From Escherichia coli (GTDB taxonomy: Bacteria > Pseudomonadota > Gammaproteobacteria > Enterobacterales > Enterobacteriaceae): a stretch of 64,000 nt of DNA. The translations under genes and the position numbers were made by a program. This document shows, piece by piece, positions 46,650 to 49,088 of this stretch; the first letter of the stretch is position 1; every line of letters starts with the position of its first letter. The DNA lies in the NCBI RefSeq assembly GCF_016026235.1, contig NZ_CP065613.1; one strand, written 5' to 3'. The notes below the pieces were generated by a model. That model ran no database searches. It had not been told where the DNA came from and saw only the letters and a program-made list of their open reading frames with translations.

Positions 46650-47629
46650 CTTACGGGCCGATGCTACCGGAGCTGCTCGGCGGTTCGGCGGATCTGGCTC
46701 CCAGCAACCTGACCATCTGGAAAGGTTCTGTTTCGCTGAAGGAAGATCCGGCGGGCAACTACATTCACTACGGGGTGCGTGAATTTGGCATGACCGCTAT
46801 CGCCAACGGCATTGCGCACCACGGCGGCTTTGTGCCGTATACCGCAACGTTCCTGATGTTTGTTGAATACGCCCGTAACGCCGCGCGGATGGCGGCACTG
46901 ATGAAAGCGCGGCAGATTATGGTTTATACCCACGACTCAATTGGTCTGGGCGAAGATGGTCCGACGCACCAGGCTGTTGAGCAACTGGCCAGCCTGCGCT
47001 TAACGCCAAATTTCAGCACCTGGCGACCGTGCGATCAGGTGGAAGCGGCGGTGGGCTGGAAGCTGGCGGTTGAGCGCCACAACGGACCGACGGCACTGAT
47101 TCTCTCCAGGCAGAATCTGGCCCAGGTGGAACGTACGCCGGATCAGGTTAAAGAGATTGCTCGTGGCGGTTATGTGCTGAAAGACAGCGGCGGTAAGCCA
47201 GATATTATTTTGATTGCCACCGGTTCAGAGATGGAAATCACCCTGCAAGCGGCAGAGAAATTAGCGGGAGAAGGTCGCAATGTTCGCGTAGTTTCCCTGC
47301 CCTCGACCGATATTTTCGACGCCCAGGATGAGGAATATCGGGAGTCGGTGTTGCCTTCTAACGTTGCGGCTCGCGTGGCGGTGGAAGCAGGTATTGCCGA
47401 TTACTGGTACAAGTATGTTGGTCTGAAAGGGGCAATTGTCGGGATGACGGGTTATGGGGAATCTGCTCCGGCGGATAAGCTGTTCCCGTTCTTTGGCTTT
47501 ACCGCCGAGAATATTGTGGCAAAAGCGCATAAGGTGCTGGGAGTGAAAGGTGCCTGATGGTGATCGCCGGATGCTGATTGCCGGATGCGACGCTGACTGA
47601 ACTGAACCCCAAAACCTGGACAGTTTCAG

Positions 47630-48505
47630 TTAACCGGCTTTTTGATACTCAGTCCGGTATTCTACCGAGCTGAGTCCCCCAAGACTGAGTTTTATTCTTT
47701 TTTGATTCCAGTAAGTTATGTATTCGTTAACAGCATTTTCCAGCTCTTCTACACTTCTGTAGTCCCGGCGATAGTACATTTCTTCTTTCAGGTGACCAAA
47801 GAAATTCTCCATTACCGCATTATCAAGGCAGTTGCCCTTGCGCGACATGCTCTGCACTAACCCTTTGTCTGCCAGGGCAGACTGATAACTTTTTATCCGG
47901 TAATGCCACCCTTGATCACTGTGGAGCAGCGGTTTTTCTCCTTCTGCAAGGCTTTCCAGCCCCTTATTTAACATGCGCTTCACCAGCTCCTCTGTAGGCC
48001 TGCAGGCAGTTTCCCACGCCACGATTTCCCCGTTAAACAAATCAAGTATCGGGGACAGGTACAGTTTTTGTCCGCCAGCCCTGAATTCGGTGATATCTGT
48101 CACCCATTTCTCACAGGGAGCTTCCGCTTTGAACTGCCGCTGAAGGATATTTTCTGCAGCGAGTCCCATATTTCCCCGGTAAGACCGGTATTTCTTCAGG
48201 CGCACAGGAGACTTCAGGCCGAGCTGTTGCATCAGTTTTCGCACTGTTTTGCCACTGAACTTAAGACCTCTTTTCTGAAGCTCACAATGGATCCGCCGGT
48301 ACCCATAACATCCCCGGTGTTCATGGAAGATGGAGGCTATGAGCTGTTTCACATCAGCATACTTGTCCTTAGCCTTCTGCAGTGACAGCTGGTAGTACAG
48401 CGTGCTTCTGGCCAGCCCTGCAGCCTTTAACAGGTCAGACTGGCAGTGTCCGCACTTCAGGCTCTGGATGACTTTCGTTTTTTCTCCAGCTCCTGGCGCT
48501 TTTTT
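47630..48505 (-). CDS. IS3-family transposase orfB (DDE integrase domain), expressed by -1 frameshift from orfA
   Basis: ORF track 47630..48352 (…HSDQGWHYRIKSYQSALADKGLVQSMSRKGNCLDNAVMENFFG...); frame stays open upstream to the aaaaaaag slippery site near 48499-48506; 5' extent approximate. Confidence 0.7.
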   Translation of the reverse strand, partial: KKAPGAGEKTKVIQSLKCGHCQSDLLKAAGLARSTLYYQLSLQKAKDKYADVKQLIASIFHEHRGCYGYRRIHCELQKRGLKFSGKTVRKLMQQLGLKSPVRLKKYRSYRGNMGLAAENILQRQFKAEAPCEKWVTDITEFRAGGQKLYLSPILDLFNGEIVAWETACRPTEELVKRMLNKGLESLAEGEKPLLHSDQGWHYRIKSYQSALADKGLVQSMSRKGNCLDNAVMENFFGHLKEEMYYRRDYRSVEELENAVNEYITYWNQKRIKLSLGGLSSVEYRTEYQKAG

Positions 48506-48978
48506 TCCAGGAGATGCTCCTGCATGGCTTTCAGATATGCATTTTCTGCGCGAAGATAACGCAGCTCATTCTTCATCTCTTCCGGCGTCATGTTTCCCTC
48601 GTTTTCATGGGTATCATTAGAACGGGTCATGCTTTTCTCCTTCCTGCGCCTGATAAAGGCCTCATTACCAGATTTGCGGTAGCCTTTTATCCAGTTTTTA
48701 ACCATGTTGTGGCTGGGAATGTTAAACCGGGCAGCTACCCGGGGTAGAGACTCAGAATGCCCGAGAGCATAAAGAACCACGCAAAGTTTATCTTCAGGAG
48801 AATAGCTACGCTTGTGTCTGCAATCCAGTGCCTGAGGACCGTGAAGAAGAAAAAGATTAATCCAGTGTGAGAGGCTGGTGTGAGAAAGTTGAAAGAGTTT
48901 TGCCGTAGAAATGATGCCTGCATGACCGGCCAGGTAATGATTTACAGCGGCAAGTTTTACTTCAAATGAATGTTTCAT
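48457..48978 (-). CDS. IS3-family transposase orfA (HTH DNA-binding)
   Basis: ORF 48457..48987; MKHSFEVKLAAVNHYLAGHAGIISTAKLFQLSHTSLSHWINLF..., leucine-zipper-like C-terminus ending at the slippery site. Confidence 0.8.
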   Translation of the reverse strand: MKHSFEVKLAAVNHYLAGHAGIISTAKLFQLSHTSLSHWINLFLLHGPQALDCRHKRSYSPEDKLCVVLYALGHSESLPRVAARFNIPSHNMVKNWIKGYRKSGNEAFIRRRKEKSMTRSNDTHENEGNMTPEEMKNELRYLRAENAYLKAMQEHLLEKKRQELEKKRKSSRA

Positions 48979-49088
48979 AAACTGCACCTTCAGATGTCAG
49001 ATTATGTCCAACATTTGGGGTGCAGTTCATGACGCGTCTTATCCGGCCTACAGCGTCTTAACCGGTCTACATGTCCCCGCTATTTTGT

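Follow-up and report, generated by a model that had tools for sequence, protein, structure and literature searches.

IS1397 is an insertion sequence of the IS150 group of the IS3 family and was described by Bachellier et al. (1997), Clement et al. (1999) and Wilde et al. (2001, 2003). It is specific for the REPs of Escherichia coli (PMC1525189; PMC3184786), and in the summary that PMC1525189 gives of Wilde et al. (2003) this specificity is set by the transposase. A reconstructed IS1397 site of strain CFT073, TGCCGGATGCGGCGTG/AACGCCTTATCCGGCCTAC, is given in supplement 13 of PMC1525189. Experiments cited in PMC1525189 also established the transposition activity of IS1397. ISKpn1 of Klebsiella pneumoniae likewise belongs to the IS3 family and has palindromic units as its insertion targets (PMC1525189); it was set beside the element studied here by description only, and differs in targeting the Klebsiella-type unit, the specificity going with the transposase as far as Wilde et al. 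(2003) are summarised in PMC1525189. IS621 and other IS110-family REP inserters likewise target the REPs of E. coli (PMC1525189; PMC3184786), but their transposases belong to a different family (DEDD), and IS621 goes in beyond the inverted repeat, on the 3′ side of the REP (PMC3184786).

The DNA analysed here, referred to as the window, is a 64,000-nt stretch of an E. coli contig (NZ_CP065613.1). Almost certainly, an intact copy of IS1397 has transposed into the loop of a REP in the spacer between the convergent genes tktB and ypfG of this window, duplicating the 4-nt loop TGAC. The element is already known and behaves as published, and nothing was found that contradicts this reading.

Boundaries and identity of the element

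An earlier note on this DNA had described a 1432-bp element with TG...CA ends and tgac on both sides, and each of these features was present (Table 1). The first letters of the element are TGAACTGAACCCCAAA and the last are TTTGGGGTGCAGTTCA; in the plus-strand reading TGAACTGAACCCCAAAACCTGGACA stands at its start and the reverse complement of TGAACTGCACCCCAAATGTTGGACA at its end. The terminal inverted repeats are imperfect, with 15 matches in the first 16 positions and 21 in all 25. Together with the TGAC duplication they correspond to the IS3-family pattern of imperfect TG...CA terminal repeats and a target duplication of 3–5 bp. When the 64-kb window was searched for the 16-nt end motif with up to two mismatches, only the two element ends were recovered (0.05 occurrences expected by chance).

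Table 1. Features of the insertion in the tktB–ypfG spacer, in window coordinates.
Feature	Position	Strand	Remarks
tktB 3′ fragment (C-terminal 298 codons)	46661..47557	+	stop 36 nt before the insertion; annotated tkt in FDAARGOS_943, tktB in K-12
Left arm of target REP/palindromic unit	47580..47593	+	GCCGGATGCGACGC; pairs with 49034-49051; contiguous with right arm in K-12
Target-site duplication, left copy	47594..47597	+	TGAC; loop (4 nt) of the REP hairpin, present once in the empty site
IS1397 copy	47598..49029	- (transposase sense)	1432 bp; full-length megablast matches (99.7–99.9%) to PGAP-named IS1397 elements; GC 47.8% versus 53.2% for the window
IRR (right-end inverted repeat, downstream of transposase)	47598..47622	+	TGAACTGAACCCCAAAACCTGGACA; 21/25 match to the other end; motif unique in window
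orfB part of OrfAB fusion	47630..48500	-	HTH_21 and rve catalytic core; D295, D355, E391, K398
orfA	48457..48978	-	173 aa and stop; ATG at 48978, stop at 48457; HTH domains (Pfam HTH_28, HTH_Tnp_1)
A AAA AAG slippery heptamer (A7G), putative -1 programmed frameshift site	48499..48506	-	PGAP 'programmed frameshift', two-piece join in near-identical copies
IRL (left-end inverted repeat, upstream of orfA)	49005..49029	-	TGAACTGCACCCCAAATGTTGGACA read on the minus strand
Target-site duplication, right copy	49030..49033	+	TGAC; directly outside the element end
Right arm and tail of target REP	49034..49051	+	GCGTCTTATCCGGCCTAC; motif 8 times in window versus 0.04 expected
ypfG (DUF1176), convergent with tktB	49089..50132	-	stop 59 nt beyond the IS end

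The element was compared by megablast with 5426 complete E. coli genomes. The best full-length matches were about 99.7% identical (99.4–99.9%) across all 1432 bp, and nearly all of them were annotated by RefSeq/PGAP as 'IS3-like element IS1397 family transposase, programmed frameshift', which bore out the earlier identification as IS1397-like. Full-length copies were present in 1707 of the 5426 genomes. At the protein level, the best 120 matches listed from a collection of 5.8 billion proteins were 98–99% identical and were named as IS1397 family or, in a minority, as generic 'IS3 family transposase'; this search was saturated with IS1397 copies, and more distant named relatives such as ISKpn1 lie outside its view. 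The near-identity to IS1397 was established indirectly, with PGAP-named copies standing in for the ISfinder entry, and the name rests on the PGAP naming and on the published length, which we take to be 1432 bp.

The window copy shares with the PGAP-named copies of IS1397 its length, its DNA and transposase sequences and its place in an E. coli REP/PU loop with a 4-bp duplication. It differs from the commonest IS1397 variant by four nucleotides, which result in the substitutions D121N, A128G and P438S; the OrfA substitution D121N (T at window position 48618) was private to the window copy among the copies compared. It also differs in its site: of the 5426 complete genomes, only 2 carry an insertion there. 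The result bears mainly on annotation. RefSeq calls a nearly identical copy in strain FDAARGOS_943 just "IS3 family transposase"; the element is properly labelled IS1397, and the split REP halves on either side of it should be recognised as one target. The locus is a clean textbook case of REP-loop targeting.

Coding content and frameshifting

All coding content of the element lies on the minus strand. The two-ORF orfA/orfB layout and the A7G slippery site that had been reported earlier were both found there. The orfA start agrees with the PGAP CDS start in related copies, and its product begins MKHSFEVKLAAVNHYLAGH. The −1 frame is open from the heptamer (48506-48499) through to the stop at 47630, and a −1 slip would generate an OrfAB fusion of 449 aa. 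Two overlapping ORFs, an orfB in the −1 frame and an A6–7G motif, the arrangement of the IS3 family, are therefore present at the level of sequence.

OrfAB matched the Pfam families HTH_28, HTH_21, rve (3e-21) and rve_2, and scored 383 bits against the NCBIfam equivalog NF033516 'IS3 family transposase', for which the cutoff is 160. The residues of the catalytic triad D295/D355/E391 are separated by 59 and 35 residues, and a lysine follows the glutamate at +7. This is the DD(35)E spacing, within an rve core, of an IS3-family DDE transposase. The transposase of this copy is intact and the copy looks functional. Downstream of the slippery site, the RNA folded like shuffled sequence (z −1.45), with no sign of a frameshift-stimulating structure. 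A scan of positions 47450-49200 for consensus promoters and terminators returned none above chance, including no promoter for orfA.

The target REP and its empty site

Deletion of the element and one TGAC was predicted by the earlier note to restore a canonical REP, GCCGGATGCGACGC-TGAC-GCGTCTTATCCGGCCTAC. Indeed, the flanks joined in this way were contiguous, in a spacer bounded by genes annotated as tkt and ypfG, in 5419 of the 5426 complete E. coli genomes, and matched K-12 MG1655 through the junction with 586 of 593 identities. The alignment to the K-12 tktB–ypfG region that had been proposed as a check was thus carried out, and the uninterrupted spacer has a REP at the insertion position, reading TTGCCGGATGCGACGC-TGAC-GCGTCTTATCCGGCCTAC, the REP that the earlier note had reconstructed. 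A 4-bp repeat has a chance probability of 1/256; a chance origin was dismissed because the joined flanks with a single TGAC are the empty site itself.

The restored site was folded as single-stranded DNA and was predicted to form a hairpin (−12.8 kcal/mol, z −4.5) whose 13-bp stem has a single internal mismatch and whose loop is 4 nt long. These four loop nucleotides are TGAC, exactly the bases that are duplicated. The site has the form of a REP: an imperfect GC-rich palindrome of ~35 nt with a GCCTAC tail, repeated many times in intergenic DNA. The frequency of the right-arm motif in the window (Table 1) indicates that it belongs to a real repeat family.

The tktB–ypfG spacer holds more than a simple REP. 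Three 14-nt copies of the left arm stand in tandem (47552-47593), the first of which overlaps the tktB stop codon, and the right arm with its tail is repeated in two tandem copies of 19 nt (49034-49071). The arrangement in K-12 is identical. The tandem arm copies may have arisen by slippage or by nested duplication of REPs.

REP targeting at other loci

Seventeen IS1397 loci of other genomes were surveyed, and 16 had readable junctions; with the window copy these 16 represented 13 distinct chromosomal sites. At 12 of the 13 the element lay in the centre or loop of a REP. Eight sites had a target duplication of 4 bp and four had one of 3 bp; the remaining site, which lacked a duplication, was that between fbaB and gatY (L009), itself in a REP. 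The same REP arms flank IS1397 at the other loci, and at the REP sites the duplication is central between the two arms. Ten of the REP sites have the orientation seen in the window, in which the GCCTAC tail adjoins the orfA end, and two have the opposite orientation. The CFT073 site reconstructed in the literature has the same form as one of the surveyed sites (L002).

These data confirm what had been cited as the hallmark of IS1397, insertion in the central loop of an enterobacterial REP/PU with a duplication of 3–4 bp, each of the two properties being seen at 12 of 13 sites. REP targeting by this element is therefore shown from junction data as well as from the literature.

The sole site outside a REP was inside an ESPR-domain autotransporter gene of E. 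coli LH50-c (L007, about 1160-1240 and 2633-2670). This copy lies in a region rich in mobile elements and has the 3-bp duplication CAA; its left flank has a REP-like decamer, GGCCGGATAA, adjoining the insertion.

In the complete E. coli genome collection, 7620 chromosomal places of IS1397 were counted versus 7 on plasmids. When the plasmid collection PLSDB was searched by tblastn with the transposase, three records gave matches of at least 95%, on records of 0.7–4.9 Mb that resemble chromosomes, and none of the remainder exceeded 52%. The element is essentially chromosomal, which fits a dependence on chromosomal REPs.

A fragment of the element was also seen in K-12 MG1655, where an unannotated solo IRR end of 65 bp, 96.9% identical, lies between yhhJ and yhhI (L020 1501-1565). 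The solo end adjoins half a REP (GGCCGGATAAGGCGTTTA/TGAACTGACCCCC...) and is truncated beside the ISEc1-family yhhI. About 1790 genomes had only a partial IS1397 match and, among the matches listed, all were this same 65-bp end. The K-12 fragment is what is left of an old insertion into a REP loop, and K-12 was without a full-length IS1397 in this search.

A second occupied genome

Only two of the 5426 complete genomes had the tktB–ypfG REP occupied, FDAARGOS_943 (99.9% identical) and GPEC1446 (99.2%). The GPEC1446 copy (L004 1901-3332) has the same REP loop, TGAC duplication and orientation as that of FDAARGOS_943 (L003). The flanks of the two differ at 33 of 1900 and 26 of 1904 positions (1.4–1.7%), and the two IS1397 variants are 3 nt apart. 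The FDAARGOS_943 copy is identical to a copy between tilS and rof in the same genome (L001), and the GPEC1446 copy belongs to the common variant, which also occurs elsewhere, for example at L002. The diverged flanks and the identity of each copy to ones at other loci suggest that this one REP was hit twice, by independent insertions.

It is conceivable, although we hold it to be rather doubtful, that the tktB–ypfG REP is a recurrent target and that an extruded hairpin or cruciform is recognised instead of duplex sequence. The first part was proposed from the second occupied genome, and the second part because the duplication is the hairpin loop at this locus and is central between the REP arms in the survey. 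If this were true, the lineage could be a natural system for the study of structure-directed targeting by a DDE transposase.

Alternative readings

IS150 resembles the element in architecture. K-12 IS150 (L005 634-2076) shares with the window element a 173-aa OrfA, a −1 frameshift, a DD(35)E OrfB and TG...CA ends, and its InsK is 50% identical to OrfB. REPs are moreover frequent in the spacers of E. coli (this window alone has 8 half-REP motifs), so that IS150, or some other IS3-family member lacking REP specificity, might have come to lie in a REP by coincidence. We consider this exceedingly improbable. At the DNA level IS150 was tried and rejected as the identity of the element, the best blastn piece being 25 nt at 84%; InsJ is only 28% identical to OrfA, the terminal repeats are others, and IS150 is 1443 bp long versus 1432 bp. 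Coincidence is opposed by the finding of REP loops at 12 of the 13 independent sites of the element. IS150 is not known to be REP-specific. The exclusion of IS150 that had been drawn earlier from the OrfA N-terminus was thereby substantiated, and the two elements are distinct members of one subgroup.

The earlier note had named ISKpn1 beside IS1397, and both are IS3-family elements that insert into REP loops (PMC1525189). The matches speak for IS1397 and leave ISKpn1 hardly any probability. No match named ISKpn1 was obtained among the best 120 proteins listed, which at 98–99% identity were all IS1397 family or generic, or in the plasmid tblastn search, where the nearest relatives were at most 52% identical once a few records that are really chromosomes were set aside. 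A further reading takes the TGAC pair to be no footprint of transposition, the arrangement having arisen instead by recombination between IS copies or as an artefact of assembly. The fbaB–gatY copy, which has no clean duplication, indicates that rearranged copies may exist. At tktB–ypfG, by contrast, the flanks joined with a single TGAC are the ancestral spacer base for base, and the same junctions occur in two independently assembled complete genomes, so that this explanation too has a negligible chance of being correct.

Proposed transposition mechanism

The steps by which IS1397 would have reached this site were modelled on the established biology of the IS3 family (IS911, IS3 and IS150). 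By analogy, OrfA would be the default product, and OrfAB would arise when ribosomes slip by −1 on A AAA AAG. OrfAB would then cut one strand at one end of the element and attack that strand immediately beyond the opposite end, producing a figure-eight. The figure-eight would be converted into a circle in which the abutted ends, with a few bp of flanking DNA between them, would form a strong junction promoter (copy-out-paste-in), and the circle would integrate into the target by way of cuts staggered by 3–4 bp. Target choice would lie with the transposase itself, to which it is ascribed in the part of Wilde et al. (2003) summarised in PMC1525189. What the window itself shows is a two-frame transposase that is intact, proper ends, the 4-bp footprint of a staggered cut and a hairpin loop as target.

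Probable effect on the host

Since the insertion falls between convergent genes, in a strain whose tktB is already disrupted, it is probably close to neutral. At most, the two transcripts would lose a REP hairpin at their 3′ ends, which is the likeliest effect.

Strain context and other insertion sequences

The nearest complete genome to the window was FDAARGOS_943, which was 99.8–100% identical in collinear blocks and differed in IS content. About 0.9 kb upstream of the IS1397 insertion, a 1.5-kb IS110-family element splits tktB at about 45132-46649 (...AACGCT to its left, TACGGGCC to its right), rendering tktB a pseudogene in this strain. Copies annotated 'IS110-like element ISSso6 family transposase' matched it at 100% identity. 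The insertion in tktB was absent from all 5426 complete genomes, and tktB is intact in FDAARGOS_943.

Between crr and pdxK, a 1426-bp IS4 at 7416-8841 interrupts the palindromic terminator of crr and is flanked by a duplication of 12 bp (CGCCCATCGGCG); several other E. coli genomes are also occupied at this site. A cluster of ISEc60, ISSso6 and IS66 is present in pdxK of FDAARGOS_943, and the window is without it. The strain is thus marked by recent IS traffic, in that IS1397, the ISSso6-like element and IS4 distinguish it from its nearest complete genome, and these differences could aid strain typing.

Two further differences and annotations were noted in the comparison with FDAARGOS_943. The eutG–eutH spacer (window about 32585-32702) holds a REP cluster (BIME) whose repeat number differs from that of FDAARGOS_943; in the alignment, 86 bp of the FDAARGOS_943 reference aligned twice and 14 bp of the window were left unaligned. 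The gene narQ is annotated as frameshifted in FDAARGOS_943 (L021 9211-10915), and its counterpart in the window lies at about 53.4–55.1 kb.
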